Source: a bacterium (GTDB lineage: Bacteria; Patescibacteriota; Microgenomatia; Curtissbacterales; GWA2-41-24). Taken from it: a stretch of DNA of 64,000 nucleotides. The position numbers were made by a program, and so were the translations under genes. Below, one piece after another: positions 13,974 to 40,722 of the stretch; position 1 is the first letter of the stretch, and the number at the start of each line of letters is the position of its first letter. The notes beneath the pieces were generated by a model. The model was not told the origin of the DNA, searched no databases, and saw only the letters and a program-made list of their open reading frames with translations. Where the stretch lies: assembly GCA_021813945.1 (NCBI GenBank), contig JAKAJD010000001.1, forward strand, positions 137,744 through 201,743, in the 5' to 3' direction.

Positions 13974-14366
13974 ATGTTTCTGGGCAGCTACATACCTTCA
14001 TTCGATAAGCATTCAAGAAGGATTGCTTTACCAAAAAAAATACGTGACTATCTTGCGACAAGTGAAGTTATTCTGTCTTTCGGCTTCGAAAAATGCCTTT
14101 TTGGCTTTGACACCAAAACTTGGCAAAAGGAATCCGAAAAACAGCTTGCTTTGCCTCTTACCGAAAGACGTTCACGCAATATACGCCGTTTCATTTTCGC
14201 CAATGCAACCGTTATCAAGCTCGATGATCAAGGCCGGTTTGTTATTCCTGGCAATTACCTGGAATACGCACAGATTGCAAAGCCAGTAGTAGTCGGTGCC
14301 GGTGATCATTTTGAAATTTGGGAAGAAGCAAACTGGGGTGAAGAGTTAAAAAAACTGGAGGCTTAA
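13974..14366 (+). CDS. mraZ: transcriptional regulator MraZ
   Basis: MFLGSYIPSFDKHSRRIALPKKIRDYL followed by a second duplicated half-domain. SD GGAGGG lies 8 nt upstream. Confidence 0.9.
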   Translation: MFLGSYIPSFDKHSRRIALPKKIRDYLATSEVILSFGFEKCLFGFDTKTWQKESEKQLALPLTERRSRNIRRFIFANATVIKLDDQGRFVIPGNYLEYAQIAKPVVVGAGDHFEIWEEANWGEELKKLEA

Positions 14367-14370
14367 AAAG

Positions 14371-15234
14371 GTGAAAAATTTTCACCAAAGCGTACTTTTA
14401 AAAGAAGCGGTAGACGGTCTTAACGTAAAACAGGATCGCCTTTATATAGATGCAACGGCAGGAGGAGGAGGTCACACAGAAGAAATTTTAAAAAGAGGCG
14501 GGAAGGTACTGGCAATAGATAGGGATTCGGAAGCAATTGATTATCTTAGGGAAAAGCGGCTGGAAAATTTAACTTTAGTAAATGATAATTTTTCGCACAT
14601 TAAAAGCATTGCAGTAAAGTTTGGGTTCGAAAAAGTTGAAGGAATAATCTTTGACTTAGGTGTTTCATCGCACCAGCTCGATGAAGCAAAAAGGGGCTTC
14701 AGTTTTCAAAAGGAAGGCCCATTGGATATGAGGATGGATCCGGCTTTACCAATTACAGCTTCAGATCTTGTAAATAATTTCGAAAAAAGGAGGATTCATG
14801 AAATTATTAAAGATTTTGGGCAAGAAAAACTTAGTTGGCCAATTGCTGACGCTATTTCTAGCGCCCGTCAATTAAAAAGGATTAACTCAACTAGTGAACT
14901 TGCTCAAATAGTAAGTGAGGTGTATCGAAAATACCGCCGAAAGTCTAAGTTGCATCCGGCAACAAAAACTTTTCAGGCATTACGAATAGTTGTAAACAGC
15001 GAACTGCTGAACTTAGAGGAGGCTTTACCGCAGACTGTCGAAATACTTAAGAAAGGAGGCCGGTTGGTAGTTATTAGTTTTCATTCACTTGAAGATGCAC
15101 AAGTCAAACGATTCTTCAAGCAAGCTGCCCGCTTGAAAACTGTAAACAAAACCCCAATCGGCCCGGGGGCCGGGGAAATTCAAAAAAACCCACGGTCCCG
15201 CAGCGCAAAACTCCGCATTGCGGAGAAAATCTAA
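14371..15234 (+). CDS. rsmH: 16S rRNA (cytosine1402-N4)-methyltransferase RsmH
   Basis: HQSVLLKEAVDGL...YIDATAGGGGH...DLGVSSHQLD motifs. Confidence 0.9.
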   Translation: MKNFHQSVLLKEAVDGLNVKQDRLYIDATAGGGGHTEEILKRGGKVLAIDRDSEAIDYLREKRLENLTLVNDNFSHIKSIAVKFGFEKVEGIIFDLGVSSHQLDEAKRGFSFQKEGPLDMRMDPALPITASDLVNNFEKRRIHEIIKDFGQEKLSWPIADAISSARQLKRINSTSELAQIVSEVYRKYRRKSKLHPATKTFQALRIVVNSELLNLEEALPQTVEILKKGGRLVVISFHSLEDAQVKRFFKQAARLKTVNKTPIGPGAGEIQKNPRSRSAKLRIAEKI

Positions 15235-15270
15235 TATACCCGAAAGGGATAGGGAAAAAGCAAAAAAATC

Positions 15271-15579
15271 ATGCCCAACGATTTCAGAGTTGCCAAAAAG
15301 CAACCCAGTTACAATTTAATAGGAAAAATAAGAGTTCGCGTCTTGGTTGTTTTAACAGTCTTGGTTTGCAGCCTCTTTTTTGCTCAATTGGTTTTTGCTA
15401 ATAACCTTGCAACAGATGGACAAAAACTAGGTCAAATCCAAGCGCAAATAGCCAATCTAAAAGATCAGAATATGACGCTTAGAGTTCAAATAGCCCAAAC
15501 GTCTTCTTTCCAGACGCTTGCAAAAAAGGCTGCCGAAATGGGCTTTGTAAACCCTAAAGATCCAATTATCCTCAAGTAG
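15271..15579 (+). CDS. ftsL: cell division protein FtsL-like (single TM + coiled coil)
   Basis: 102 aa, one TM helix, leucine-zipper-like periplasmic part. Position between rsmH and ftsI matches ftsL synteny. Confidence 0.6.
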   Translation: MPNDFRVAKKQPSYNLIGKIRVRVLVVLTVLVCSLFFAQLVFANNLATDGQKLGQIQAQIANLKDQNMTLRVQIAQTSSFQTLAKKAAEMGFVNPKDPIILK

Positions 15580-15606
15580 GTTTTATTTTGTTAAACTAAT
15601 ATACTA

Positions 15607-17352
15607 GTGGATAGAATCAAGGTTTTCCAAATTGTAGCTTATGTAGTTGCGGCCATAATAATTACCCGCCTCTTCTATTGGCAATTTCTAGCAAAAGTAG
15701 AAACCAATGCTTCCAGCATTGCCGACGAGAGCAAAATTCCTGCATCACGTGGCGAAATATTTGCTTCCGATGGTTTCCCTCTTGTTGCCAACCAAGAAGC
15801 GTTTCTTCTTTACGGCCAGCCGAACTCATTAAACACTAATCCTCAAACTGCGGCCCAACAACTAGCGCCATTTTTAATCTCAGAAAAGTACTCAACTTCA
15901 TCAGCCCAGCTTAGCGATGATGAGAAAAAGTTAAAAGATCAAGAGATAAAAAACGAAGAGCAAGACTTGGCTAACAAGCTCTCCGACAAAAAACTTTTTT
16001 GGGTTCAGCTAGCCCGCAAAATCCCATTAGAAGTAAAAACAAAAATAGACAGCCTTTCCATAAAAGGGCTTGACTTTGAACACGACACAAAAAGATTTTA
16101 TCCAGAAGCCTCAATGGCTGCACAACTTTTGGGTTTTGTTGGTTCGAATAAGTTTGGTGATGACACCGGCTATTTTGGCCTGGAAGGTTATTACGACAGC
16201 CAGCTTAAAGGCCAAGATGGCAGGTTGGGTGAAGAAAAAGATCCTTTGGGTTTTCCAATCCTCGTAGGAAGCTACCATTCAATTCCTCCAAAGGAAGGGG
16301 ATTCCTTATATTTGACGATTGATCGCTCTATTCAATATATTGTTGAAAAGAGGCTTCGAGAAGACGTTCAGAAATATGGTGCTAAGGATGGAACAGTTAT
16401 TGTATCCGATCCAAAAACTGGGCACATTTTAGCTATGTCGACATATCCCAACTTTAATCCCAGCTTATTTTCGGAATATAGCGAGTCGGATTTTAAAAAT
16501 CCTGCAGTATCCGATGCTTACGAACCCGGAAGCACTTTCAAATTGATTGCTATGTCGGCTGCTTTAGATTTATCACTTCTTGACCCTAACACCCGCTGCG
16601 ACGTCTGCTCTGGCCCCAGAACTATAGGAGATTACCAGATCGAGACTTGGAATAAACAGTATTTTCCAAATTCAACAATGACAGAGGTCATACAACATTC
16701 CGACAACGTTGGTATGACTTTTGTTGCGGATAAACTCGGCATAGATAGATTTTCGGATTATATTAGAAAATTTGGCTTTGGTGCAAAAACCGGAATGGAT
16801 GTGCAAGGGGAAATACCTGGGTTAATAAGATCAAAGGACGAGTGGCGGCCAATAGACCTTGCAACAGCTTCGTTTGGGCAGGGGCTGGCAGTTACCCCAA
16901 TTCAAATGGTTCAAGCTGCCCAGGCAATAGCCAATGGCGGCAAGCTGATTGCCCCAAGAGTCGTTTCTAAAATCGTGGAAAACGGTCGTGAAATTACAGT
17001 GGGCTCTCCATCCGAACAGCAAGTAATATCTCAAAAGACTTCAGCGCTCATGACAGAGATGATGGTAAATGCTGTTGAAAAGGGAGAAGCTCACGCCTTT
17101 GCACCAAAAGGCTACAGCATTGCCGGTAAAACGGGTACGGCACAAATTCCTGTTGCCGGCCATTACGATCCTACCAAAACTATTGCAAGCTTCATCGGAT
17201 TTGCCCCTGCCGAAAATCCCAAATTTGTAATGCTTGTCCGTTTCACCGAGCCTTCGTCATCAATCTTCGGCGCTGAGACAGCGGCCCCAACATTCTTTGG
17301 AATTGCTAAGGATATATTCAACTATCTTTCCATCTCGCCTAATTCAAATTAA
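15607..17352 (+). CDS. ftsI: penicillin-binding protein 2 / FtsI-type transpeptidase
   Basis: N-terminal anchor and dimerisation domain. Transpeptidase motifs STFK (…PGSTFKL…), SDN-like and KTGT (GKTGTAQ). Confidence 0.9.
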   Translation: MDRIKVFQIVAYVVAAIIITRLFYWQFLAKVETNASSIADESKIPASRGEIFASDGFPLVANQEAFLLYGQPNSLNTNPQTAAQQLAPFLISEKYSTSSAQLSDDEKKLKDQEIKNEEQDLANKLSDKKLFWVQLARKIPLEVKTKIDSLSIKGLDFEHDTKRFYPEASMAAQLLGFVGSNKFGDDTGYFGLEGYYDSQLKGQDGRLGEEKDPLGFPILVGSYHSIPPKEGDSLYLTIDRSIQYIVEKRLREDVQKYGAKDGTVIVSDPKTGHILAMSTYPNFNPSLFSEYSESDFKNPAVSDAYEPGSTFKLIAMSAALDLSLLDPNTRCDVCSGPRTIGDYQIETWNKQYFPNSTMTEVIQHSDNVGMTFVADKLGIDRFSDYIRKFGFGAKTGMDVQGEIPGLIRSKDEWRPIDLATASFGQGLAVTPIQMVQAAQAIANGGKLIAPRVVSKIVENGREITVGSPSEQQVISQKTSALMTEMMVNAVEKGEAHAFAPKGYSIAGKTGTAQIPVAGHYDPTKTIASFIGFAPAENPKFVMLVRFTEPSSSIFGAETAAPTFFGIAKDIFNYLSISPNSN

Positions 17353-17371
17353 AGTGCTAATATGAAAGCGT

Positions 17372-17641
17372 ATGGATGCCTTCCTAAAAGACTACATCCT
17401 TAGCTTCGACAAGAGTCAACCTATCGTAAGTTCCATCATCCTCTTTGTTTTAGTTACCTGGTCTTTTGTATGGAAAGGTCTAGCGCTTTGGCACTCTGCA
17501 AAAAATGAAGACAAATATTGGTTCATTGCGATTTTAATATTGAACACAATCGGTCTTTTGGAAATAGTTTATTTGTTTTTATTTTCCAAAAAAAGGTGGA
17601 CAATTGGTAAAGTTAAAAAATATATAGAAAGTTACATTTAA
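17372..17641 (+). CDS. small hypothetical membrane protein (2 TM)
   Basis: 89-aa ORF immediately after ftsI. A 10-bp perfect inverted repeat follows at 17645-17680. Confidence 0.45.
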   Translation: MDAFLKDYILSFDKSQPIVSSIILFVLVTWSFVWKGLALWHSAKNEDKYWFIAILILNTIGLLEIVYLFLFSKKRWTIGKVKKYIESYI

Positions 17642-17765
17642 GCCATATTTGGCACTTGTGGGGTTTGTACTGCCAAATATTCGCATTGTTCGTTTACGCT
17701 ATTCCAGAGCCCTATTTTGATACATTTGAGTCACTATTTTCGAAATAGTATTGATGGGTTATTTT

Positions 17766-18362
17766 TTAAGCAGCAGCAGCTCTTTCTTTGATAACTCTTA
17801 TATCCCTCGCACAGATTACCAGTTGTCTCGCTATAAGGTTCGCCTTTTCAGTTGTGCCAAATTCTGGTGTTCTCGGCCTAAAAAAGTTTCGTTTAACCTC
17901 GCCTGACAACCTAGCTAAGGCTACTGAGATATCATCGACAAGATCGCAAGCAGCATCTTGTCCTATTTGTCCCGCAAAAGCTTCCTCCATACTAATGATG
18001 AGCCTGCGTGTATCGTTTTTTTCCTTCCACTTGATCTCAGAATATGCCTGGCGCTCAGGATGTTTTCTAGGAAGATGAATTACTGAAGGTTTATCATCAG
18101 CCGCAAGTCTTCCCACCAGATAATGTCTTAAAAGAAGCAATTCCTGTGCTGTTAAAGTGTCAAGAATAATTCGGTTTGCAGGGCTATCTATGATTAACGA
18201 GGCAAAAGCTCCGTATCCACGATCCTCCCAAAATTTTAGTGCAGCCCCGGAAAGATCCGTACGTGTTTCTCTATATTTTCCTAAATCCGGATTTCTGGGC
18301 AAATCGCGCTTGCCCAGCCCAGCATTTTCCAATTGAGCTTGAAAATGCATCTCCCTCAGCAT
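17766..18362 (-). CDS. hypothetical protein, opposite-strand insertion inside the dcw cluster
   Basis: 198-aa ORF and the only minus-strand gene between mraZ and ftsZ. No recognisable domain. Convergent with the small ORF before it. Confidence 0.55.
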   Translation of the reverse strand: MLREMHFQAQLENAGLGKRDLPRNPDLGKYRETRTDLSGAALKFWEDRGYGAFASLIIDSPANRIILDTLTAQELLLLRHYLVGRLAADDKPSVIHLPRKHPERQAYSEIKWKEKNDTRRLIISMEEAFAGQIGQDAACDLVDDISVALARLSGEVKRNFFRPRTPEFGTTEKANLIARQLVICARDIRVIKERAAAA

Positions 18363-18450
18363 ACCTGGGTGATTTTAACCCAAATTGAGCAAAATTTCAA
18401 TCCTATAGGTTTGAAATTGACTGAATTTGATGATAAAATAACATAATCTT

Positions 18451-19659
18451 GTGATCTGGCAAAAAGTTAAAAACTATTATCACCTTACCCAAGCCTTTCT
18501 TTCGGCCTTGTATTTTCATTTTCCAGGTAAAAATTTAACTATAATAGGCGTGACTGGGACCGACGGGAAGACAACGACGGTCAATATCATATTTCATATT
18601 CTCAAAAGCAATGGTTATAGGGTTTCGATGGTATCATCCATCGGGGCGCAAATTGGCAATAATTCCCAAGATACGGGTTTCCATGTCACTACCCCTAGCC
18701 CGTTTCAGGTTCAAAAACTGATAAATCAAGCTCAAAAAGCAGGCAGCAAGTATCTGATACTGGAAGCTACTTCCCACGGATTAGAGCAAAATAGGCTTGC
18801 GTTTGTAAATTTTAAAATCTCTGTTGTCACAAATATCACCTCAGACCATATGGATTACCATAAAACATGGTCAAACTATGCAAGCGCCAAGGCCAAACTC
18901 TTTAAAGATGCATCTATTTCAGTATTGAATAAAGACGATAAATCATACCAATTTTTAAAACAAAAAATATCGGGTAAAATAATTACCTATTCAACACAAA
19001 ACAAAGCTGATTTGAACTCAAAAGCATACAATTTAGACTCAATATTTGCTCAAAGATATAACCGGTCTAATGCTTTGGCAGCTGTAGCCGCCTGCCTCGC
19101 AATCGGACTGCCCAAAAATAAAATCGTAAAAGCTTTAAAAACCTTTAAGGGGATACCTGGCAGATTTGAGAAAGTAAATGCCGGGCAGAAATTTGAAGCA
19201 ATAGTAGATTTTGCTCACACCCCTAACGCTTTTGAAAATATCCTCACAGAACTAAAAGGAAGAAAGAAAGTTAAATCAAAGCTTATTGCTGTTTTTGGAT
19301 CCGCCGGCAAAAGGGATAAAGGGAAAAGGCCGCTAATGGGTGAAATAGCAGCAAAGTTAGCAGATACTTCTATAATCACCTCCGAAGATCCTAGAACGGA
19401 AAATCAAGATTCCATAATTTCGCAAATTTCAGAAGGCTTCAAAAAGTTGGGCAAAAAAGAAAATATCAACTACTTTAAAATTCCCGACAGGGGCACAGCA
19501 ATTTCCTTTGCAGTTAATCTGGCAAAAAATAATGACACAGTTGTATTTTTGGGCAAAGGCCATGAAAAGAGTATGACAATTGGGAAGAGGGATTATCCAT
19601 GGGATGAAGTGGAAGAAGTAAAAAAAGCAATACGAAAGGTTATAAAGAATGAAAAATAG
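18451..19659 (+). CDS. murE: UDP-N-acetylmuramoyl-L-alanyl-D-glutamate--diamino acid ligase (MurE), short form lacking the usual N-terminal domain
   Basis: P-loop IIGVTGTDGKTTT begins about 30 aa from the start. Mur ligase middle and C domains follow. Synteny right after ftsI. Confidence 0.8.
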   Translation: MIWQKVKNYYHLTQAFLSALYFHFPGKNLTIIGVTGTDGKTTTVNIIFHILKSNGYRVSMVSSIGAQIGNNSQDTGFHVTTPSPFQVQKLINQAQKAGSKYLILEATSHGLEQNRLAFVNFKISVVTNITSDHMDYHKTWSNYASAKAKLFKDASISVLNKDDKSYQFLKQKISGKIITYSTQNKADLNSKAYNLDSIFAQRYNRSNALAAVAACLAIGLPKNKIVKALKTFKGIPGRFEKVNAGQKFEAIVDFAHTPNAFENILTELKGRKKVKSKLIAVFGSAGKRDKGKRPLMGEIAAKLADTSIITSEDPRTENQDSIISQISEGFKKLGKKENINYFKIPDRGTAISFAVNLAKNNDTVVFLGKGHEKSMTIGKRDYPWDEVEEVKKAIRKVIKNEK

Positions 19660-21640
19660 TTTTTCAGCAATAGTTCTTGCAGGCGGAAAAGGCAAAAGAA
19701 TGAATTCCACCTTACCAAAAGTCCTCCACCGAGTGGGAAGCGTAACCATGCTTGAAAGAACAGTTAAATTACTCAAGAGTATAAATCCTACCCAGACAAT
19801 CGTAGTTTGCAACAAAGAGAATATATTAAGTATTCAAAAAGTATTAGGGAATCAAGTGTCGTATGCCACACAAACTCGCTCAAACGGCACGGCAGATGCT
19901 GTGTCAACTGCTATCAACGCCGAAAATCTAACTGAAAACACAATTGGTATTTTTTATGGGGACGATACCTCGCTTTACAAGGCTGAAACGATAAAAAAAG
20001 TCTATTCTAAGCACCTTAAAAGTAATGCAGCGATTACGTTTATTACTGTTATAAAGCAGGACCCAACAGGGCTCGGTAGGATTGTTCGCAAAAATTCAAA
20101 AGTTCTGGCAATAGTTGAAGAAAAAGACGCAAACGAAAGTCAGCTTAAAATTAAAGAAGTTAGCGACGGCGTTTATTTTTTCCAAAAAAAATGGTTGGTG
20201 GAAAATGTCTCAAGCCTTACACCTTCAAAAGCAACAGGGGAACTTTACTTGACTGACTTAATCGAATTAGCCATTTCCCAAAACCAAAAAGTCGAAACAT
20301 ACACTCTTGAAGACTCAAGCCAATGGCAGGGAATTAACAGTCCCATTGAGCTGGCACAAGCCAACTTAAAACTATCAAAAAAAATTCATTTCATGGGGAT
20401 CTCCGGTGCCGGGGCCGCGGCTGTTGCGGGAATTGCCAGAGGGTTCGGATACGATGTGACAGGATGTGACATAAATAAAAAAAGTCCTTATACGTCAAAA
20501 CTCAATGTGCCGATAGAAAAAGGCCACAACATATCACACATAGAAGGAATCAGCGTACTTATCGTCTCACCGGCGGTTTTAATCTACGATCCCCAAAATC
20601 CCGAACTTGTCGAGGCCCGCGCAAAAGGAATACCGATTGTAACCTGGCAGGAGTTCCAGGGTAAAATTCTGCAAGGCGGGAAATTTGTAATAGCTGTGGC
20701 GGGCGCTTACGGAAAATCTACAACAACGGCAATGATAGCCAAGATTTTAACTGACGCGAGGCTCGACCCAACATGCGAAATCGGTGCGGCCGTTCTCGAA
20801 TGGGAAGGTAACTTTAGGATAGGAAATTCAAGGTATTACATATGTGAAGCAGACGAATACTTCAATAACTTCCTAAACTACAAACCGGATATCGCAGTAA
20901 TTCTAAATACAAAATGGGAACACCCGGACTTTTTTAAATCGCCCGAAGACCTCGCAGATTCCTATCAAAAATTTATAAAAAACATCAAAGTTGGAGGCAA
21001 GCTAATCATTTCCAAAAATGACCAAAAATTAGCATCAGTCCAAGAAGACACAACTGTTATAAACGTCGAGGATTTCAATATAAGTAATCTATCATTAATT
21101 GGAGATTTCAGAAGGGAAAATGCTAATTTTGCGCTCACAGTAGCAAAAACCCTGAATCTCGATTTAAAAAAGGCAACCCAATCAGTCATATCTTTTAAGG
21201 GGCTTGGAAGAAGGCTTGAGAAAAAGGGTGAGATAGGGCAAACGGTATTTTATGATGATTATGCAGTCCAACCATACACAATCAAAACCACGGCTAATGC
21301 TCTGGCAGCCAAATTTGGAAACAAAAAAGTTCTTTTGGTTCTCGAACCGCACATGCACTCTAGAATAAAAAGATTTTTTAGCGAATTTGTGTCGGCACTT
21401 GAATCGGTCCAGGCAGATATCTATATTACAGATGTTTTCACGGCTCGTGAAAAATCAGAAAATGAGAATATATCCAAAAGATTACAAGAATCACTTGGCC
21501 AAAAGGCAAAATATACAGGGTCTATAGAAAACACTGCACAAGTTGTAGCCAAAAACCTAAAAGATTATGATGTTGTTTTGTCAATGGGAGCAGGAGATGT
21601 ATATAAACTGTACGACCTAACAAAAGTTAAAAATGGATAA
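19649..21640 (+). CDS. murC: fusion protein: GlmU-type sugar-1-phosphate uridylyltransferase N-domain + UDP-N-acetylmuramate--L-alanine ligase (MurC)
   Basis: Residues 1-240 match the GlmU pyrophosphorylase domain (AIVLAGGKGKRMNSTLPKVLH, DPTGLGRIVRKNSKVLAIVEEKD, GELYLTDLIELA). From about residue 245 the sequence is MurC (MGISGAGAAAVAGIARGFGYDVTGCD...AVAGAYGKSTTTAMI). One continuous reading frame. Confidence 0.85.
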   Translation: MKNSFSAIVLAGGKGKRMNSTLPKVLHRVGSVTMLERTVKLLKSINPTQTIVVCNKENILSIQKVLGNQVSYATQTRSNGTADAVSTAINAENLTENTIGIFYGDDTSLYKAETIKKVYSKHLKSNAAITFITVIKQDPTGLGRIVRKNSKVLAIVEEKDANESQLKIKEVSDGVYFFQKKWLVENVSSLTPSKATGELYLTDLIELAISQNQKVETYTLEDSSQWQGINSPIELAQANLKLSKKIHFMGISGAGAAAVAGIARGFGYDVTGCDINKKSPYTSKLNVPIEKGHNISHIEGISVLIVSPAVLIYDPQNPELVEARAKGIPIVTWQEFQGKILQGGKFVIAVAGAYGKSTTTAMIAKILTDARLDPTCEIGAAVLEWEGNFRIGNSRYYICEADEYFNNFLNYKPDIAVILNTKWEHPDFFKSPEDLADSYQKFIKNIKVGGKLIISKNDQKLASVQEDTTVINVEDFNISNLSLIGDFRRENANFALTVAKTLNLDLKKATQSVISFKGLGRRLEKKGEIGQTVFYDDYAVQPYTIKTTANALAAKFGNKKVLLVLEPHMHSRIKRFFSEFVSALESVQADIYITDVFTAREKSENENISKRLQESLGQKAKYTGSIENTAQVVAKNLKDYDVVLSMGAGDVYKLYDLTKVKNG

Positions 21641-22625
21641 ATATCAAGAATTTAAAAACACCATTGGTCCTCTTAGGGTTTTTGAAAACGAACCTCTTTC
21701 CCGTCATACTTATTTTAAAATAGGTGGCCCGGCAAAGCTGTTTTTTGAGGCCAAAACAGCAGACGATTTCAAACAAGCTTTGGCCTTGGCTACTAAACTT
21801 GGCATTCCTTACATAGTTTTAGGAATGGGGGCAAATGTTTTAGTCTCGGATAATGGTTTTAGCGGTCTTGTCATTAAAAACAAAGTAGACGAAGTCAAAT
21901 TGGTAGGCATCAAAGGCACACTGGGGAGAGACGGCAAAAGTATTAAAAGTGCCGTAGTTTGGGCAACTTCCGGAACCCTTATGAATCGGCTGGCAAGATT
22001 TACTATAGACGAAGGCTTGGAAGGCTTGGAATTTCTGCTGTCGGTTCCCGGTACAATTGGCGGGGGATTAAAAATTAATGCCCATTTCGAAGTTGAAAGG
22101 GAACAGTTTATTGGCAATAAACTCCAAACCGCGACTGTTTTTGATACCAAAAGCGGGGAAATTATAATACGCAAACAGGACTATTTTAATTTTGGATACG
22201 ATTATTCTAAGCTCCAGGAGACGCAAGAAATTGTTCTCGACGCAACCTTTCGGCTGGATGTTGCCAAGAACAAGGAAGCGTTATGGCAAGCTGCTATGGA
22301 TAACGTCAAAAGGAGAAACGAAGAGCAGCCAATCGGAATTGCTTGTTCAGGATGTGTTTTTAGAAACATCCAGCCCAAGGAGGCCATCCGACTTCAAACA
22401 CCGCATTTAACAACATCTACAGGCTACATCATAGACAGTTTAGGTCTTAAAGGTGAAAAAATAGGTGGTGCGGAAATCTCCAGACATCACGCAAATTTCA
22501 TCTTAAATACTCAAAATGCAACGGCTTCCGACGTGTTAGAATTGATTAAACTTATCAAAATTAAAGCCCAACAAAAGTACGGTTTAGACCTTAAAGAAGA
22601 GATTTTTTTAGTCGGTGACTTTTAA
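21633..22625 (+). CDS. murB: UDP-N-acetylenolpyruvoylglucosamine reductase MurB
   Basis: FAD-binding N-terminus YFKIGGPAKLFFEAKT and the MurB C-terminal domain. Confidence 0.88.
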   Translation: MDKYQEFKNTIGPLRVFENEPLSRHTYFKIGGPAKLFFEAKTADDFKQALALATKLGIPYIVLGMGANVLVSDNGFSGLVIKNKVDEVKLVGIKGTLGRDGKSIKSAVVWATSGTLMNRLARFTIDEGLEGLEFLLSVPGTIGGGLKINAHFEVEREQFIGNKLQTATVFDTKSGEIIIRKQDYFNFGYDYSKLQETQEIVLDATFRLDVAKNKEALWQAAMDNVKRRNEEQPIGIACSGCVFRNIQPKEAIRLQTPHLTTSTGYIIDSLGLKGEKIGGAEISRHHANFILNTQNATASDVLELIKLIKIKAQQKYGLDLKEEIFLVGDF

Positions 22626-22628
22626 AAA

Positions 22629-23885
22629 ATGGCAAAATTTCTAGTCGAAGGTAATAAAAAATTATCCGGAAAAATTCATGTAGCGGGCAATAAAAACTCC
22701 GTTTTGCCCCTGATGGCTGCCTGTATCTTAACCGCTGAAACTTGCGTAATCGAAAATGTTCCGGCGATATCAGACGTCTCAACTATGGCTAAACTCATGG
22801 AAATTTGTGGAGCAAAAATTCAAGGTGTCGGAACATCAACTCTTACCATAAATTGCCGTGAAATCAAAGCTGCTCCGCTTCCATCGGAATTGACCCAGAA
22901 ATTAAGAGCCTCGGTTTTACTTGTTGCTCCGCTAGTTTCTCGTGTAGGTGAAGTAACCATGGGCTATCCTGGCGGCGATGTTATTGGCAGAAGGCCTCTG
23001 GACGCTCATTTTCAGATACTTGAAGCAATGGGTGCCAAAATAAAGTCCTCACATGAATCTTTCAAAGTTACAGCTCAAAAATTTACACCCGGTGAAATAT
23101 TTTTAATGGAATCTTCAGTTACAGCAACTGAAAACGCGATTATGGCGGCAAGTTGCGCAAACGGCGAAACAGTCATTAAGCGGGCGGCTTCCGAACCTCA
23201 TGTAGTCGATCTATGCAATTTTCTTTGCAAAATGGGGGCAAAAGTAGAAGGGATTGGCACAAACGTTTTGAAAATCACAGGCGCCGAAACACTGCTGGCA
23301 GCGGTTCATGCAGTGCGTCCAGACCATATTGAAGTCGGTACTTTTGCGATTCTGGGCGCTATAGCCTGCGAAAAACTCGAAATCGCACCAGTTATCAAGG
23401 AGGATTTGGACATGATTCTCCTGACACTTTCTAAGTTTAATGTCAACTACAAATTGGCAGGGGACAAGCTCACCATAACAAGCGGAAAACTGAAGGCAGT
23501 TGAAAAAGTCGTGACCGATGTTTGGCCTGGTTTCCCCACAGATTTAATGGCTCCCATGATTGTTTTGGCAACACAGGCCGAAGGTGTCACAATTCTTCAT
23601 GACTGGATGTACGAGTCGCGCATGTTTTTTGTCGACAAGCTTCTTTCCATGGGTGCCAAAGTCGAAATTGCCGATCCTCATAGAGTTTTTGTCTATGGCC
23701 CAACAAAACTTCATGGAAGAAAACTCGACACGCCGGATATCCGTGCAGGGATTGCTCTGGTTATTGCCGCCCTGGCAGCAGACGGGAAAAGTGAAATCGC
23801 AAACTCCGAACTTATTGAGCGCGGTTACGAAAACATCGCCGAGAGGCTTTCTGAAATTGGCGCGGTAATTAAAAAATCAGCTTAA
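22629..23885 (+). CDS. murA: UDP-N-acetylglucosamine 1-carboxyvinyltransferase MurA
   Basis: MAKFLVEGNKKLSGKIHVAGNKNSVLPLMAA... EPSP-synthase-like fold over the full 418 aa. Confidence 0.92.
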   Translation: MAKFLVEGNKKLSGKIHVAGNKNSVLPLMAACILTAETCVIENVPAISDVSTMAKLMEICGAKIQGVGTSTLTINCREIKAAPLPSELTQKLRASVLLVAPLVSRVGEVTMGYPGGDVIGRRPLDAHFQILEAMGAKIKSSHESFKVTAQKFTPGEIFLMESSVTATENAIMAASCANGETVIKRAASEPHVVDLCNFLCKMGAKVEGIGTNVLKITGAETLLAAVHAVRPDHIEVGTFAILGAIACEKLEIAPVIKEDLDMILLTLSKFNVNYKLAGDKLTITSGKLKAVEKVVTDVWPGFPTDLMAPMIVLATQAEGVTILHDWMYESRMFFVDKLLSMGAKVEIADPHRVFVYGPTKLHGRKLDTPDIRAGIALVIAALAADGKSEIANSELIERGYENIAERLSEIGAVIKKSA

Positions 23886-23957
23886 AACTTCAATTAGCGC
23901 GTCATTACAATTTGTTCATTAACGCTGCCTATTGTATAATTCCAAATTGCCTATAAA

Positions 23958-25157
23958 ATGCCTCAGTCAGTCTATTTTGAAGTTGAAAATTGGAAAAAGC
24001 CATTACATATGGCAAAGGCAAGTCTTGCCAAGCTTTACTTGCAAATGTTGCCGAAAATTCAAGTGATTGGCATAACCGGAAGTGTTGGCAAAACCTTAAC
24101 TCAAAACGCAGTCTTTAAAGTTTTATCCCAAAAATACAATTGCGTAGTGGGCGGTGAAAATTTAGACCCGACCTTTAGAATTCCACAAGCTATTTTGCAT
24201 CTTAAACCATGGGACAACTTTTTGATCCTAGAATATGGGGTCGAACATCCGGGAGATATGGATTATTACTTGGATATCGCCAAACCGAATATTGCGGCAG
24301 TCACAAATATCGCTACTACTCACACAAAATACTTCAATAACACGACAGGCGTTTATGGAGAAAAATCAAAGCTAGTAAAAGCTCTTTCACCCTCGGGCTA
24401 CGCGATCGTCAATGGCGATGACAAGTTAAGTTCAAAGCTAAAACAGGAAACCCGCGCCAAAGTTTTAGTTGTGGGGAAAGAGGGGAAAAATGGCGTGAAA
24501 ATTTCCAATTTCAAACAGAATCTTGAAGGGTCAAGCTTTAGGATTCATTACAAAAGTCAGATGGTTCATGTTACTTGGAAAATTATCGGTCGTCATCAAC
24601 TCCTTGCAGCATACATTGCAACAACGATTGGGATTTTAAACAACGTTACTCTCAAGCAAATCGCAACAGGACTTTCTCAAGTTAAACCACCGGAGCACAG
24701 GTTAAGCCAAATCGTTACAAAAAGCTCAAACATTATAGATGACACCTACAATTCATCTCCAAAAGCCGCAATAGAATCGTTAAATACTTTAAAAGAAATT
24801 GGCAAAGGCCTCAAGAAGATCGCTATTTTGGGTGAAATGAAAGATCTGGGCCAACTTTCCAAAAGAGCCCATCAAAAAGTGGGTGAAGCCGTTGCCAAAA
24901 ACAGAATTAACGCTCTTATAACTGTTGGAGCACCTGCAGCTGAAATTGCCCTGTCAGCCAAAAAAAGCGGATTTAGCGGAAAAATCATAAATGTCACCAA
25001 TACAAAAGAAGCTACAAAAGCCGCAAGGCCATATGTTGGCAAAAAAGCGCTGATTCTTATTAAAGGCTCACGCCATGCTCATTTGGAAAGGGTTGTTTTC
25101 GGACTACTTCACAAATCGACCCAAATTTCCTGCTACCACTGCGGCAAGCTAAAATAA
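23958..25157 (+). CDS. murF: UDP-N-acetylmuramoyl-tripeptide--D-alanyl-D-alanine ligase MurF
   Basis: P-loop VIGITGSVGKTLTQ. Mur ligase C domain. Immediately upstream of mraY. Confidence 0.85.
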   Translation: MPQSVYFEVENWKKPLHMAKASLAKLYLQMLPKIQVIGITGSVGKTLTQNAVFKVLSQKYNCVVGGENLDPTFRIPQAILHLKPWDNFLILEYGVEHPGDMDYYLDIAKPNIAAVTNIATTHTKYFNNTTGVYGEKSKLVKALSPSGYAIVNGDDKLSSKLKQETRAKVLVVGKEGKNGVKISNFKQNLEGSSFRIHYKSQMVHVTWKIIGRHQLLAAYIATTIGILNNVTLKQIATGLSQVKPPEHRLSQIVTKSSNIIDDTYNSSPKAAIESLNTLKEIGKGLKKIAILGEMKDLGQLSKRAHQKVGEAVAKNRINALITVGAPAAEIALSAKKSGFSGKIINVTNTKEATKAARPYVGKKALILIKGSRHAHLERVVFGLLHKSTQISCYHCGKLK

Positions 25158-25173
25158 GATATAATAAGATACA

Positions 25174-26205
25174 ATGGTTCAAATTTTAGGCTTAATTTTG
25201 CTATCCTTTTTTACGATAAGCGTTCTCCTGGTCCCTTATATAAATCTCCTTTATCAAATTAAATTCATTCGCCAAAAACAAAAAACTAAAGATCTTTTTG
25301 AAGCAAGAACACCGATTTTTGATAGACTTCACGCCCACAAAGCCGGAACACCAGTTGGTGGCGGTGCCTTAATTATTTTTGTGGTCACATTTCTTTATTT
25401 GGTTATTTTTTACCTGTTTCCCTATTTAGGCATTACGCGAACTTCAGTTTATCCATATAAAAAGGAAATCGAGGTTTTACTTTTTACATTCCTTTCCTTT
25501 GGGGCGCTTGGTCTAGTAGATGATTTGAGAAAAACGTTTGGTTTTAAAAGAACCAAATTCTGGGGTTTAAGGTTTCGTTTTAAATTCATTGCCCAGTGGG
25601 TTCTTGCTCTCATTATTGCCTCCATGCTTTATTTTAGCCTTGGAATTTCCATCTTAAACATCCGTTTTTTTGACATTTTCAACTTAGGGCCATTTTATAT
25701 TCCATTTGCTGCATTTATCATTGTTTCTTTCACAAACGCGGTTAATATCTCAGACGGTTTAGATGGGCTGGCGGCTGGCCTTTTAGTAATTTGTTTGATT
25801 GCCTTTCTTATTATGTCTGCCTCCATTCTAGATACAACCCTTTCCATTTTTTTGGGCCTCTGGATCGGGGCATTAATTGCTTTTCTCTACTTTAACATTT
25901 GGCCGGCCAGAATCATCTTGGGAGATGTTGGCGCTCTTTCTTTCGGTGCAACTTTGGCCGTTGCCGGACTTCTTCTGGGAAAGCCCTTGGGCCTTACCAT
26001 AATTGGCGGAGTTTTTGTTTTGGAAGTCGCATCGTCTTTGATTCAAATTCTTTCCAAAAAGATCCGCAAGAAAAGAGTTTTTGAGGTTGCACCGCTTCAT
26101 CTTTGGGTTCAACATAAAGGATGGCAGGAACCCAAAATCGTCTTCAGGTTTTGGCTAGCCCAGGTAATTTTTGCGCTATTTGGTTTGTGGCTCTCATTTT
26201 TTTAG
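25174..26205 (+). CDS. mraY: phospho-N-acetylmuramoyl-pentapeptide transferase MraY
   Basis: 10-TM protein with DD...NAVNISDGLDGLA and the C-terminal HH motif region. Confidence 0.92.
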   Translation: MVQILGLILLSFFTISVLLVPYINLLYQIKFIRQKQKTKDLFEARTPIFDRLHAHKAGTPVGGGALIIFVVTFLYLVIFYLFPYLGITRTSVYPYKKEIEVLLFTFLSFGALGLVDDLRKTFGFKRTKFWGLRFRFKFIAQWVLALIIASMLYFSLGISILNIRFFDIFNLGPFYIPFAAFIIVSFTNAVNISDGLDGLAAGLLVICLIAFLIMSASILDTTLSIFLGLWIGALIAFLYFNIWPARIILGDVGALSFGATLAVAGLLLGKPLGLTIIGGVFVLEVASSLIQILSKKIRKKRVFEVAPLHLWVQHKGWQEPKIVFRFWLAQVIFALFGLWLSFF

Positions 26206-26988
26206 ATGCAAAGGAAAAAACCTATCGGTATATTTGACTCCGGTGTCGGTGGTTTATCAGTTCTTATAGAAATTAAAAAACTTCTTCCAAAAGAAAATTT
26301 AGTTTTTTTAGCAGACCAAAAAAATGTTCCGTACGGCCTAAAAACTCAAAAGCAGTTAGAAAAAATAACAGAAAATATTACTCGATTTTTACTTGGACAT
26401 GATATAAAAATGCTGGTTATTGCCTGCAACACTGCCACTTGTTATTCGCTCTCTCACCTTAGAAAAACGTTTTCCATTCCAATAATCGGAGTTGTACCGG
26501 CCATAAAGCCGGCAGCTAAAAAGACCCAGAAAGGCAAAATTGCCGTTATGTCTACACCCGCCACCGCAAAAAGTTCCTATTTGAAAAAACTTGTAAAGGA
26601 CCACGCTCCCACATCAAAAGTACTTAGAATTGGCTGTCACGGTTTGGAGGACCATGTTGAGGAATTGAATTACCAGGCAATTCGAAAAACGCTTCCTAAA
26701 TTCGCAAAAAGAATTGAAAATTTCGGCGCAGACGTTTTGGTATTAGGCTGCACCCATTACCCACTCATAAAAGATGAAATTAAAAAAAATCTGAATCCAA
26801 AAATAAAAGTTATAGATTCGGGAAAAGCCGTCGCCCAAAGAGTGAAATTTATCCTCAACCAAAATAAAATTTCCTCAAAGGAAAAAATGTACGAAATCTA
26901 TTACACTACGTCGGATACGGCTAAATTCTCCAAAGTCGCATCAACTCTTCTTGATACGGAAATTAAAGCCCAAAAAGCAGTATTTTAA
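26206..26988 (+). CDS. murI: glutamate racemase MurI
   Basis: IGIFDSGVGGLSVL...ACNTAT...GCTHYPL, the paired Cys racemase motifs. Confidence 0.9.
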   Translation: MQRKKPIGIFDSGVGGLSVLIEIKKLLPKENLVFLADQKNVPYGLKTQKQLEKITENITRFLLGHDIKMLVIACNTATCYSLSHLRKTFSIPIIGVVPAIKPAAKKTQKGKIAVMSTPATAKSSYLKKLVKDHAPTSKVLRIGCHGLEDHVEELNYQAIRKTLPKFAKRIENFGADVLVLGCTHYPLIKDEIKKNLNPKIKVIDSGKAVAQRVKFILNQNKISSKEKMYEIYYTTSDTAKFSKVASTLLDTEIKAQKAVF

Positions 26989-26990
26989 AA

Positions 26991-28355
26991 ATGCTAAAGT
27001 CCCAAAAAATTATAGTTTACGGTTTGGGCAAAGAAGGCGCAGCGGCTGCATTGTTTCTTTCCAAATCAAATGATGTCACCGCAATCGACGATAGAAAAAA
27101 ATCTGACTTCGAAAACGATCTTCTTGACCGGCTGGAAAGTGCAAAAATCAAACTATATTTTCAAAACGAAAATCCGAAATCAGAAAAATTTGATTACATT
27201 TTGCGCTCCCCGGGTATCAGGCCGGATAACCCAAAAATAAAAGCCTACATTTTAAATGGAGCAAAACAAATCACTTCAACTGGCATTTTTTTTGAAGATT
27301 GTCCCGGGCAAATAATCGGTGTGACTGGCACCAAAGGCAAAGGCACAACCTCGACTTTAATTTATGAAATACTAAAAGCTTCAGGTGCGGATGCCCACAT
27401 TGCCGGAAATATCGGCACGCCAATGCTTGAGGTTTTGCCCAAACTATCCCAAAAGAGCTTTGTCGTTTTAGAGCTTTCCAGTTTTCAGCTTATGGATCTT
27501 AAAAAAAGCCCCTATGTAGCAGTTGTTCTAATGGTTACCTCGGAACACTTGGATTGGCACAAAGACCACGCCGAATACTTACGGTCTAAACTGCCCATTA
27601 TTTCCAGTCAGTCATCAAAGGATTTTGCCGTTATAAATTGGGACTATCCAAATTCTAAAGCGTTTGCAGCCTCAACTGATGCAAAAACAATTTCTTTTTC
27701 AACAATCGGAAAATCAGCCGATATTTACGTTGATGGTCAAAATATAATCTCAAACGTTAAATTGACAGGGCAAAAGATATTATCGATTGAAAAAATTAAA
27801 TTGCCGGGACGGCACAATTTGCAAAATGTTTGTGCTGCAGTTGGTGCGGCTCAAGCCCTTGGCATCGAAAATCGCTTTATCCAAAAGGCAGCATACACAT
27901 TTTCCGGTTTACCAAATCGCCTGGAGCTTATAGCCGAGATAAACGGCGTTTCTTATTACAACGATTCCTTTTCCACAACTCCGGAAACAACGATAGCTGC
28001 AATCGAAGCTTTCCAAAAACCCAAAGTGCTAATCCTTGGCGGTTCATCGAAAAAAGCTGATTTTTCAGACCTTGCCAAAACAATTGCCGACTCCTCGTCA
28101 ATCCGTGCGTTAATCTTAATAGGTGCAGAAGCCAAAAGCATAAAAGACGCATTGGCAAAATATAAACTCAAGCCTCCGACATCGGAAGGCGCCAGAAACA
28201 TGCAGCAAGCAATAGCCCAAACTCTCAAATTTTCAAAAGCAGGGGACGTTGTCCTTCTTTCTCCGGCCTGTGCTTCATTTGATATGTTCAAAAATTATCA
28301 GGATAGGGCCGAGCAATTTAAGATGGAAGTTTCAAAAATCAAAACGCCTCAATAA
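26991..28355 (+). CDS. murD: UDP-N-acetylmuramoylalanine--D-glutamate ligase MurD
   Basis: IIGVTGTKGKGTTSTLI P-loop plus the Rossmann-like N-domain. Confidence 0.9.
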   Translation: MLKSQKIIVYGLGKEGAAAALFLSKSNDVTAIDDRKKSDFENDLLDRLESAKIKLYFQNENPKSEKFDYILRSPGIRPDNPKIKAYILNGAKQITSTGIFFEDCPGQIIGVTGTKGKGTTSTLIYEILKASGADAHIAGNIGTPMLEVLPKLSQKSFVVLELSSFQLMDLKKSPYVAVVLMVTSEHLDWHKDHAEYLRSKLPIISSQSSKDFAVINWDYPNSKAFAASTDAKTISFSTIGKSADIYVDGQNIISNVKLTGQKILSIEKIKLPGRHNLQNVCAAVGAAQALGIENRFIQKAAYTFSGLPNRLELIAEINGVSYYNDSFSTTPETTIAAIEAFQKPKVLILGGSSKKADFSDLAKTIADSSSIRALILIGAEAKSIKDALAKYKLKPPTSEGARNMQQAIAQTLKFSKAGDVVLLSPACASFDMFKNYQDRAEQFKMEVSKIKTPQ

Positions 28356-29471
28356 ATGGACAACCAAAGAACCGTTTTAAAAGCTCAAAAAAGCGCTCTC
28401 GATTATCCTCTTCTTATAACCGGCGCAGCCCTTGTCATAATTGGGCTTATTGCCATCTATGATGCTTCAGTCGTTTCTGCTTTTCACGATTTCGGTGATA
28501 AATTTCACTACATAAAAAACCAGTTGGTATGGGCAACTTTAGGTTCCTTTAGCCTGGTATTTTTTAGTTTTTTTGATTACCATAAACTTGTAAAACTGGG
28601 GTCTCTGATTCTTGGTGCATCAATTATTCTTTTGGGCCTTGTTCTTATCCCGCACATCGGAACGGAAGCTTTAGGGGCCAGGCGCTGGATAAATATTGGA
28701 TCATTTAACTTTCAGCCATCGGAATTTACCAAACTGGCAATTATTTTCTACGCAACGGCAATTATCTCCAAATTCGAACATTTCAAAATTACCCTTTACG
28801 ACGCAGCCATTGTTTATTTTTTGCCCATAATGATTGCAGCTGGCTTGGTTTTTTTCCAACCGGATTTTGGAACGGACATCATCTTTTTAAGCTTGGCCCT
28901 TATCGTATACTTTGTCGGAAACGCTCCTATTTGGCATTTCCTTTTAAGTTTGCCGGTTTTGGTTTTAGGCGGGCTTTTTGTCATCATCACCGAACCTTAT
29001 AGGCTTGAACGCTTGAAAGCATTTTTGGACCCGACTTACGATCCCAAAGGCGCTTCCTATCAGATCAACCAAATAATTATCGCCTTGGCAACCGGCGGTT
29101 TTTTAGGGGTGGGGCTTGGAGGCTCTCGGAGCAAATTTGAATTTATTCCCGAAGTCCAAAACGACGCAATTTTTGCTGTAATTGTTGAAGAATTGGGTTT
29201 TTTGGGCGCCTTAGTTCTTATTGGTCTATTTCTTTTTCTTTTAACCCGAGCCATAAAAATAGCCAGAAGCGCGCCCGATTTTATAGGCAAAGTTTTAGGA
29301 GCCGGGCTTGTGGGGCTTTTAGCATCGCAAATTTTTCTAAACTTGGCATCAAATGTGGCCCTAGTTCCTTTAACCGGAATTCCGCTTCCGTTTATATCCT
29401 ACGGCGGCTCGTCTCTTTTTGTTACCTTAAGTGCACTTGGCATACTTTTAAATATCAAAAGGCAATCATGA
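28356..29471 (+). CDS. ftsW: SEDS family peptidoglycan glycosyltransferase FtsW
   Basis: 10-TM SEDS protein with SFQPSEFTKL and PEVQNDAIFAVIVEELGF blocks. Position between murD and murG. Confidence 0.9.
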   Translation: MDNQRTVLKAQKSALDYPLLITGAALVIIGLIAIYDASVVSAFHDFGDKFHYIKNQLVWATLGSFSLVFFSFFDYHKLVKLGSLILGASIILLGLVLIPHIGTEALGARRWINIGSFNFQPSEFTKLAIIFYATAIISKFEHFKITLYDAAIVYFLPIMIAAGLVFFQPDFGTDIIFLSLALIVYFVGNAPIWHFLLSLPVLVLGGLFVIITEPYRLERLKAFLDPTYDPKGASYQINQIIIALATGGFLGVGLGGSRSKFEFIPEVQNDAIFAVIVEELGFLGALVLIGLFLFLLTRAIKIARSAPDFIGKVLGAGLVGLLASQIFLNLASNVALVPLTGIPLPFISYGGSSLFVTLSALGILLNIKRQS

Positions 29472-30565
29472 AAAAAATCGTTGTAACGGGTGGCCACTTA
29501 ACTCCAGCTTTGGCTCTTATTGAAAATCTTCAAAAGCAAAAAGATGTTGAAATTATTTTTTTCGGCAGAAAATATGCATCGGAAGGGGCGAAAGTAGAAT
29601 CCGCAGAATATAAAATCATCAAGCAAAAAGATATTAAATTTGTGCAAATTACAACCGGTCGTCTCCAGCGAAAGTTTACACGCTACACTCCCAAATCTTT
29701 AGCCAAAGTTCCGGGCGGCTTCGCCCAAGCAATTTATCATCTTAAGCGGGAAAAACCGGCAGTTGTTGTTTCCTTCGGCGGCTACATTGGCTTACCGGTA
29801 ATATTCACAGCAAAACTTCTGGGTATAAAAACCATAATTCACGAGCAGAGTGCAGTACCCGGGCTTGCCAATAGGCTGAGTGCCAAGATTTGCGACAAAA
29901 TTTTCGTTTCTTTTCCAAAAACGGCAAAGTACTTTCCGGCCCAAAAAACTGAAGTTATCGGCAATTTAACAAGATCCGACGTCTATAAAAAGCAAGCGAC
30001 TTCCAAAAAAATCAGCGATTTTCTGAAAAAATCAGAAAGCTTAATTTTTGTAACCGGCGGAAACCAGGGTTCCCATTTTATAAACGAGCTTATCTTCCAG
30101 AGCATTGAAAATCTGAAAAATTATCAAATCCTGCATCAGGTTGGAACTCTAAATTTCAAAGGTGATCTCGACAGGGCTTTGGAAAAATCAAATAGCAATT
30201 ACTTGCCTGTCGACTATCTCACATCTTCAGATTTTGGCGCGAGCCTAAACTCAGCAAGAATTGTCATCTCGCGATCCGGTGCTAACACCGTCTGGGAACT
30301 GGCAACCTTATCCAAAGTTGCAATCTTAATCCCTCTTCCGATCTCAGCTGCCGGTGAGCAATATGAAAACGCCCAAATCCTAAAAGAAGCCGGATCGGCA
30401 ATCGTCCTAAATCAAAAAGAAACAACTCCTCAAACTTTAATATCAACCATCGGCGAAATCGAAGCAAATTACCCCAAATTCCAAACATCTGCCAAAGCTC
30501 TTTCCACCAAAATGCCCAAAGATGCCGCGCAAAAACTTGCCGAGGCAGTTATCAGTTATACTTAA
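29468..30565 (+). CDS. murG: undecaprenyldiphospho-muramoylpentapeptide beta-N-acetylglucosaminyltransferase MurG
   Basis: VVTGGHLTPALAL...VTGGNQGS... GT28 N and C domains. Confidence 0.9.
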   Translation: MKKIVVTGGHLTPALALIENLQKQKDVEIIFFGRKYASEGAKVESAEYKIIKQKDIKFVQITTGRLQRKFTRYTPKSLAKVPGGFAQAIYHLKREKPAVVVSFGGYIGLPVIFTAKLLGIKTIIHEQSAVPGLANRLSAKICDKIFVSFPKTAKYFPAQKTEVIGNLTRSDVYKKQATSKKISDFLKKSESLIFVTGGNQGSHFINELIFQSIENLKNYQILHQVGTLNFKGDLDRALEKSNSNYLPVDYLTSSDFGASLNSARIVISRSGANTVWELATLSKVAILIPLPISAAGEQYENAQILKEAGSAIVLNQKETTPQTLISTIGEIEANYPKFQTSAKALSTKMPKDAAQKLAEAVISYT

Positions 30566-30568
30566 ATT

Positions 30569-31237: not shown

Positions 31238-31259
31238 CTCCATCTAAAAAAATCTCGTA

Positions 31260-32537: not shown

Positions 32538-32610
32538 TGCGCTTGAAAATAAAGCCCTTCTGTGGTAAATTGTGACAGCTTTTAGTCACAGCTTTTAGCC
32601 GATAGCTTTT

Positions 32611-40712: not shown

Positions 40713-40722
40713 AACATGTACT

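Follow-up and report, generated by a model that had tools for sequence, protein, structure and literature searches.

We describe a fusion of the uridylyltransferase half of GlmU to the muropeptide ligase MurC, encoded in a 64,000-nucleotide stretch of DNA (hereafter, the window) that spans positions 137,744 to 201,743 of contig JAKAJD010000001.1 (assembly GCA_021813945.1), from a bacterium of the Curtissbacterales lineage GWA2-41-24 (Patescibacteriota; Microgenomatia). The gene, at 19649..21640 on the + strand, is a single uninterrupted frame of 663 amino acids that starts with ATG and has zero internal stops according to the open reading frame (ORF) listing and its translation. Its features are as follows, with the evidence for each in parentheses.

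19649..21640, +: fusion of a short GlmU (uridylyltransferase only) to MurC, 663 amino acids (Pfam, NCBIfam, identical protein on at least 10 independent contigs)
19667..20377, +: GlmU-type sugar-1-phosphate uridylyltransferase domain, residues 7-243 (PF00483, NCBIfam, PDB, Foldseek)
19676..19702, +: nucleotide-binding signature LAGGKGKRM, residues 10-18, equivalent to LAAGKGTRM of GlmU (PDB alignment, motif position)
20162..20164, +: Ser172, at the position of GlmU Asn169 (alignment with S. pneumoniae GlmU)
20342..20377, +: C-terminal helix of the GlmU domain, residues ~232-243, running straight into MurC strand beta1 without a separate linker (AlphaFold2 secondary structure, junction length, comparison with unfused genes)
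20381..20674, +: MurC domain 1 (UDP-MurNAc binding), residues 245-342 (PF01225, MurC structures)
20696..21088, +: MurC central ATP-binding domain, residues 350-480, with P-loop GAYGKSTTT at 352-360 (PF08245, motif position)
21209..21595, +: MurC C-terminal domain, residues 521-649 (PF02875)

A GlmU uridylyltransferase domain joined to a complete MurC

This composition had been proposed in a sequence-only reading of the DNA, and domain annotation agrees with it. Pfam matches NTP_transferase (PF00483) to residues 7-243 (77.9 bits, cut-off 21.2), followed in residues 245-649 by Mur_ligase, Mur_ligase_M and Mur_ligase_C in the order found in MurC, and the NCBIfam calls concur. The Pfam search of the 663 residues returned no match to Hexapep or the left-handed beta-helix (LbH) domain, and about 12 GlmU equivalog models from NCBIfam score 130-200 bits while each covering only the first ~240 positions (2-241 of ~450), so that the beta-helix acetyltransferase half of GlmU is absent, as the same reading held. 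The protein falls below the GlmU equivalog cut-offs of NCBIfam, with 191.6 against 366.85 bits for TIGR01173 and 201.8 against 450 for PRK14354.

The N-terminal part is of the GlmU type. In a search of residues 1-246 against the PDB, the top matches were GlmU chains (best 1.6e-41, S. pneumoniae, ~34% identity over the N-domain), with RmlA far behind at 1e-7, and NCBIfam ranks GlmU at 202 bits against 62 for RmlA; the possibility that this domain belongs to a different nucleotidyltransferase is thereby set aside. Foldseek superposes it on the pyrophosphorylase domain of GlmU (1g97) with a root-mean-square deviation (rmsd) of 3.1 A over 256 columns. The GlmU motifs are present as QTRSNGTADA (75-84), DPTGLGRIV (138-146), EEKDA (157-161) and GELYLTD (197-203), in line with what had been read from the sequence, except that the signature loop is G-x-G-K-R-M and not G-x-G-T-R-M. 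The Lys that stands here for the canonical GlmU Thr is the majority residue (91 of 121 fused homologues), and the loop Arg is kept in 120 of the 121.

Domain order, motifs, nearest relatives and fold all identify the C-terminal part as a MurC with its three domains complete. It scores 310.1 bits with the murC model TIGR01082, slightly under the cut-off of 335.1 (mpl 159, murD 74; NCBIfam); a MurC that stands unfused on a related metagenome contig (L045) is likewise under this cut-off, at 303.7 bits. The best PDB match of residues 245-663 is a MurC (4.8e-62; Mpl 1.9e-15), and Foldseek aligns this part with H. influenzae MurC 1p31 (TMt 0.82, rmsd 2.4 A). The central domain is shorter than usual, its Pfam alignment covering positions 1-149 of a 200-position model, and the P-loop residues G352, G355, K356, S357, T358 and T359 are invariant in the family alignment, as are many MurC motifs. 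An AlphaFold2 model built with 57 homologues as input has a mean pLDDT (per-residue confidence) of 91.7 and a pTM (global fold confidence) of 0.88, and is confident across the GlmU-MurC junction.

The fusion is conserved in Curtissbacteria

An assembly or frameshift artefact that joins two genes would be the most trivial explanation of such a protein, and its likelihood is negligible. The identical 663-residue product recurs on at least 10 contigs, the longest of 975,962 bp, which come from different ENA and Logan samples and from independent assemblers. More than 120 protein clusters share the GlmU_N-MurC architecture (GlmU_N being the uridylyltransferase half), with identities of 51-73% and lengths of 648-695 amino acids (~665); the best 120 of these clusters are all full-length, with NTP_transferase and Mur-ligase domains both present. 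These results, together with the confident model across the junction, establish the frame as genuine. A scan of genome contigs with one protein as query returned close relatives only. According to protein-database names, from which we drew the taxonomic spread, the organism is nearly always Candidatus Curtissbacteria where the source gives one.

The suggestion that this architecture had not been described is right for the literature, in which we found no description of a GlmU-MurC or MurE-GlmU fusion, nor of GlmU in CPR (Candidate Phyla Radiation), Patescibacteria, Microgenomates or Curtissbacteria. The databases hold the protein in abundance under generic product names ('sugar phosphate nucleotidyltransferase', 'NTP transferase domain-containing protein', 'UDP-N-acetylmuramate--alanine ligase'). 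The GlmU_N-MurC architecture is thus apparently new to the literature, not to databases.

The fusion gene is embedded in a compact dcw cluster

The fusion gene belongs to a complete and compact cell-division and cell-wall (dcw) cluster, in which it overlaps both neighbors:

13974..33720, +: dcw cluster, in the order mraZ, rsmH, ftsL, ftsI, murE, glmU(N)-murC, murB, murA, murF, mraY, murI, murD, ftsW, murG, ftsQ-like, ftsA, ftsZ
18451..19659, +: murE, 402 amino acids, without N-terminal domain 1; its stop overlaps the fusion start by 11 nucleotides
21633..22625, +: murB; its start overlaps the fusion stop by 8 nucleotides
22629..23885, +: murA, user of UDP-GlcNAc, 3 nucleotides after murB (TIGR01072, 466 bits)

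Two small ORFs without known function lie between ftsI and murE.

Short GlmU occurs free, fused to MurE and fused to MurC

Searching 1.84 billion representatives at 50% identity with the N-domain gave 262 matches at E<=1e-30. We sorted the architectures of the best 150 of these 262, together with 120 MurC-fused proteins, as follows.

Free short GlmU, mostly 240-260 amino acids: 82 (best 150 of 262)
Short GlmU at the C-terminus of a MurE-type ligase: 6 (best 150 of 262)
Short GlmU at the N-terminus of MurC (P0049, P0176): 2 (best 150 of 262)
Longer forms with an LbH (Hexapep) domain: 34 (of 54 longer representatives)
Short GlmU fused to a HAD hydrolase: 5 (of 54 longer representatives)
Short GlmU fused to an APH-family kinase: 1

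A length of 445-510 amino acids proved unreliable as a mark of a full GlmU: Hexapep is found in only 34 of the 54 longer representatives, and P0136 and P0185 are without it.

In related Microgenomates, a free short glmU of 248-254 amino acids sits between murE and murC. On contig L038 the order is murE, glmU_N (248 amino acids), murC, murB, murA, murF, mraY, murD, and the glmU_N stop overlaps the murC start in the sequence GAGCTATGAAA (ATGA; GAG CTA TGA AAC). On L036 it is murE, glmU_N, pgeF, murC, murB, murA, alr, ddl, murF, and on L002 (CAYSOG010000003.1) murE, glmU_N (253 amino acids), an uncharacterised ORF, murC, murB, murA, mraY. As in recognized Mur chimeras, the partners of the fusion are thus found as separate and adjacent genes on these three contigs, with pgeF or the ORF in between on L036 and L002. 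The L002 record is titled 'uncultured Gammaproteobacteria bacterium', yet it has a dcw order of the Microgenomates type, with short murE and short glmU, and it shows 43% identity to the window protein; the record has probably been given the wrong taxon. We considered whether the 242-residue ORF between short glmU and murC on L002 is a HAD protein, from a DxDxT motif seen by eye, and found no Pfam or NCBIfam match.

Other lineages have joined the same gene differently. The complete genome of Candidatus Woesebacteria GW2011_GWF1_31_35 (CP011214; L004, 8780-13864) encodes a MurE-GlmU(N) protein of 651 amino acids, the UDP-GlcNAc-binding protein YvcK/GlmR (TIGR01826, 261 bits against a cut-off of 196) and a MurC-MurB protein of 711 amino acids. 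Contig L001 carries the GlmU_N-MurC fusion as in the window, and L040 carries a second, divergent one (P0176) in the same slot. In a rough neighbor-joining tree, the N-domain of P0176 groups with free short forms, apart from the Curtissbacteria clade, which suggests that at least two independent events fused short GlmU to MurC.

At the junction, the short-GlmU helix ELAQANLKLSK leads directly into the MurC N-terminus KIHFMGISGAG, and free proteins have at this point a few additional tail residues and a start Met. The AlphaFold2 model places a helix at 232-242 and a strand at 245-249. Of 57 aligned fusions, 46 share one junction length and the rest have insertions of 3-16 residues. With a partner that varies (none, MurC or MurE) and a shared synteny, the fusion is best read as a merger of adjacent dcw genes. 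The simplest reading is that two overlapping neighbors in a very compact operon merged in frame, with either neighbor serving as partner in different lineages.

Predicted activities and the reason for the fusion

To assess the N-domain we used the residue numbering of S. pneumoniae GlmU, anchored on the PDB alignment. The UTP-, Mg2+- and GlcNAc-binding residues R15, K22, Q72, G77, T78, D102, E154, N169, E195, Y197 and N227 are each retained by 112-121 of the 121 MurC-fused proteins, and likewise by MurE-fused and free short forms. All GlmU catalytic residues are intact in the window protein except at the Asn169 position, which is occupied by Ser172. Across the 121 fused homologues this position is Asn in 115 and Ser in 5, the other Ser variants being the cluster representatives P0002, P0022, P0092 and P0102; with Asn in 115 of 121, the Ser is no evidence of a family-wide switch to MurNAc-1-P. 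No GlmU homologue other than this domain occurs in the window, and MurA and MurG, both encoded in the same operon, require UDP-GlcNAc. From residue conservation and this pathway need, we infer that the N-domain is a GlcNAc-1-P uridylyltransferase.

We think it quite probable that the protein is a bifunctional enzyme with two independent active sites, produced by the in-frame merger of overlapping dcw neighbors. Residues 1-243 would convert UTP and GlcNAc-1-P to UDP-GlcNAc, and residues 245-663, the MurC part, would add L-Ala to UDP-MurNAc. The ancestral neighbors would have been an acetyltransferase-less short glmU, in the murE-murC slot that it occupies in Microgenomates, and a translationally coupled, overlapping murC. 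The likely benefit would be fixed 1:1 co-production, to which stability or co-localisation within a loose assembly of Mur enzymes may add. The GlmU and MurC steps are not consecutive, since MurA and MurB act between them; because these two enzymes, encoded immediately downstream, intervene, direct channelling of substrate between the two sites is unlikely.

Three points weigh against this interpretation. With its high pTM and a junction length that is mostly fixed, the modelled protein may have a defined geometry between its domains, which could go beyond passive co-expression. By analogy with S. aureus, the Ser172 copy may be a somewhat less efficient enzyme: Asn169 hydrogen-bonds the C3-OH of GlcNAc, and S. 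aureus GlmU, with a natural Ser169, has a kcat/Km ~6-fold below that of NagU, with a kcat of 6.3 per second, while the S169N change rescues a nagU mutant (Fong et al., 2026, bioRxiv 10.64898/2026.06.23.733835). Finally, no acetyltransferase through which the presumed substrate GlcNAc-1-P could be supplied was found in the window.

In a rival explanation, the fusion was selected for physical coupling: the GlmU domain would dock rigidly on MurC domain 1 and nucleate a cytoplasmic Mur metabolon with MurA, MurB and MurE, linking UDP-GlcNAc supply spatially or allosterically to muropeptide assembly. The four-domain model without a disordered linker, the junction length shared by 46 of 57 homologues and the repeated fusion of short GlmU to Mur ligases, MurC and MurE alike, all speak for it, and Mur chimeras have served as an argument for a Mur complex (Shirakawa et al., 2023, PMC10214165). 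We nevertheless regard it as unlikely, given that the two reactions are not consecutive, that the partner varies by lineage while many relatives keep the gene free, and that some members have 3-16 inserted residues at the junction. The sequence-only reading had proposed that the fusion physically couples UDP-GlcNAc formation to L-Ala addition, and for the same reasons, the intervening MurA and MurB and the variable partner, we do not retain that proposal.

Consecutive steps would be restored if the N-domain were a MurU-like MurNAc-1-P uridylyltransferase, turning salvaged MurNAc into UDP-MurNAc and handing it to the fused MurC. Such a fusion makes biochemical sense, the Ser of the window protein replaces Asn at the contact with the sugar C3-OH, where MurNAc bears its lactyl group, and among relatives of the short GlmU there are fusions to an APH-family kinase (P0155) or to HAD hydrolases, recalling the salvage trio AmgK/MupP/MurU. 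We dismissed this identity on sequence grounds and consider it very improbable: no MurU chain was found among the PDB matches of residues 1-246 at E<=1e-3, where GlmU reaches 1e-41; the MurU family NF045761 lies outside the 25 best NCBIfam families, and hence at ~38 bits or less against 202 for GlmU and its own cut-off of 250; and the Ser is seen in only 5 of 121 fused homologues. Moreover, murA and murB lie directly downstream, which points to de novo synthesis of UDP-MurNAc, and MurA and MurG would still need UDP-GlcNAc. Ser172 can also be taken to mean that the N-domain is weakened or regulatory in this organism, with most UDP-GlcNAc coming from another enzyme encoded elsewhere, for instance a uridylyltransferase of the NagU/UAP type. 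The lower kcat/Km of the S. aureus Ser169 enzyme and the S169N rescue favor this idea, to which we give very little credence: the other catalytic residues are all intact, the S. aureus enzyme is active even with Ser169, and a second uridylyltransferase was not seen within the window, which does contain a mannose-1-P guanylyltransferase-like gene (4812-5915), but one of another family.

GlcNAc-1-P supply without the acetyltransferase half

To look for the missing acetyltransferase, we scanned nearly all window ORFs of at least 100 amino acids and a few shorter ones with Pfam and/or NCBIfam. No LbH acetyltransferase, GNAT, APH-type sugar kinase, GlmS or GlmM was found in this window, which is ~6.5% of the genome. 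A GNAT beside murE on L038 was examined as a GNA1-type GlcN-6-P acetyltransferase; its PDB matches are of the N-alpha/RimI type rather than GNA1, and the window contains no homologue of it.

The relatives of the short GlmU offer a circumstantial lead. P0155 (L039, 938-2662) is a 574-residue protein that combines a short GlmU-type domain with an APH-family phosphotransferase, and in other genomes a YvcK/GlmR, PgeF or HAD gene adjoins the short GlmU gene. Such fusions to APH or HAD proteins and these neighbors would fit a salvage-type supply of GlcNAc-1-P. The APH- or HAD-fused forms (P0155, P0185; 5 of 54 longer representatives) also resemble salvage modules of the AmgK/MupP/MurU type. A separate acetyltransferase has been inferred for some NagU-containing bacteria that keep only the N-terminal GlmU domain (Fong et al., 2026). 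We tentatively raise the possibility, itself doubtful, that Microgenomates/CPR have a streamlined route to UDP-GlcNAc without GlcN-1-P acetylation, of which the short GlmU in the dcw cluster would be the mark. GlcNAc taken up from other organisms would become GlcNAc-1-P through an anomeric kinase (APH/NahK/AmgK-type) or a HAD-type mutase and would then be uridylylated by the GlmU domain, which in Curtissbacteria, fused to MurC, would form the sole entry to peptidoglycan precursors.

Other genes in the window

The gap between ftsI and murE contains a DUF5652 ORF (17372-17641, +) and a 198-residue ORF on the opposite strand (17766-18362, -) without a family match; the same gap on the related contig L035 holds DUF5652 and an ORF with a faint DUF4383 match. 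Mur-ligase domain 1 normally binds the UDP part of the substrate. It is lacking from both MurE (402 amino acids), for which only Mur_ligase_M and Mur_ligase_C are on record, and MurF (399 amino acids, 23958-25157); the NCBIfam alignments of the two begin at model positions 70 and 62. Short MurE/MurF without domain 1 also occur on L036, L038 and L040, and the Woesebacteria MurE (L004) looks longer at its N-terminus, judged from the translated sequence.

Directly upstream of mraZ, at 12028-13596, lies a gene for a PurF-like class-II glutamine amidotransferase (GATase) of 522 amino acids, which reaches 247 bits with the purF model (cut-off 350) and which GlmS models match only in the N-terminal GATase part. 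It is an odd find in a lineage generally thought to be without de novo purine synthesis. L035 has a GATase gene in the same place, upstream of mraZ. An ATP-grasp protein at 52423-53472 (-), with matches to RimK and to the C-terminal part of D-Ala-D-Ala ligase, may be the Ddl that is missing from the dcw cluster, and a second FtsW/RodA-family gene is found far from the cluster at 58331-59377 (+). The window further encodes, at 39252-44037, an AcrB-type RND transporter (1104 amino acids) after a 486-residue ORF with a weak Biotin_lipoyl match, putatively a membrane-fusion-like protein, and, at 45438-46055, a zeta-toxin/AAA_33 kinase-like ORF with several ORFs nearby that have no family match.

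Comparison with known systems

GlmU has long been regarded as the route to UDP-GlcNAc that all bacteria share and cannot do without, and as a two-site antibiotic target. The fusion resembles it (TIGR01173; 1G97, 1HV9) in its pyrophosphorylase fold, signature loop and catalytic and GlcNAc-binding residues, and retains the start of the helical arm. It differs in carrying MurC in place of the LbH acetyltransferase/trimerisation domain, which makes trimerisation via the beta-helix impossible, and in the Ser at the Asn169 position. With the LbH domain absent and its score below cut-off, it does not qualify as a member of the bifunctional GlmU equivalog. With MurC (TIGR01082; 1P31, 9IR5) it shares the three-domain Mur-ligase organization and the P-loop, and its best sequence and structure matches are all MurC; unlike these, it has a 244-residue N-terminal extension, a shorter central domain and a score slightly below cut-off. 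MurU (NF045761) belongs to the same superfamily and is similarly minimal, a single-domain sugar-1-P uridylyltransferase acting in the supply of cell-wall precursors, but it gives no significant sequence match, and the residue pattern of the N-domain is GlmU-like.

Another parallel is the truncated, N-terminal-only GlmU of some NagU-containing bacteria, likewise a uridylyltransferase without acetyltransferase, which implies another route to GlcNAc-1-P (Fong et al., 2026); here, in contrast, the short GlmU sits in a CPR dcw cluster and is fused to MurC. Our findings indicate that a large uncultured bacterial group keeps only the uridylyltransferase half of GlmU, inside a cell-division and cell-wall operon, and has repeatedly joined it to Mur ligases, which backs the suggestion, made recently, that other pathways to UDP-GlcNAc are not rare. 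The widespread acetyltransferase-less GlmU of CPR dcw clusters, with the question of where its GlcNAc-1-P comes from, is of greater interest than the fusion, which genome compaction probably produced as a by-product, tolerated or mildly favored by selection, and which therefore matters to specialists more than to basic understanding.

Natural Mur chimeras surveyed to date comprise MurE-MurF, MurC-Ddl, MurC-MurB, MurG-MurC, MurD-FtsW and MraY-MurG (Shirakawa et al., 2023). Fusions of non-consecutive enzymes are common among them and have been explained by stoichiometry, stability or complex assembly; the survey left out unidentified species, hence CPR genomes, and does not mention GlmU (Shirakawa et al., 2023). 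The protein described here is like these chimeras in that a Mur ligase is joined head-to-tail and without a linker to a neighboring dcw product, with non-consecutive partners as in MurG-MurC and MurC-Ddl. It differs in that the partner is a predicted UDP-GlcNAc-forming enzyme from outside the classical Mur set, a type not listed in the survey. With GlmU_N-MurC, the known set of natural Mur chimeras, itself used as evidence for a cytoplasmic Mur assembly, gains a new class.

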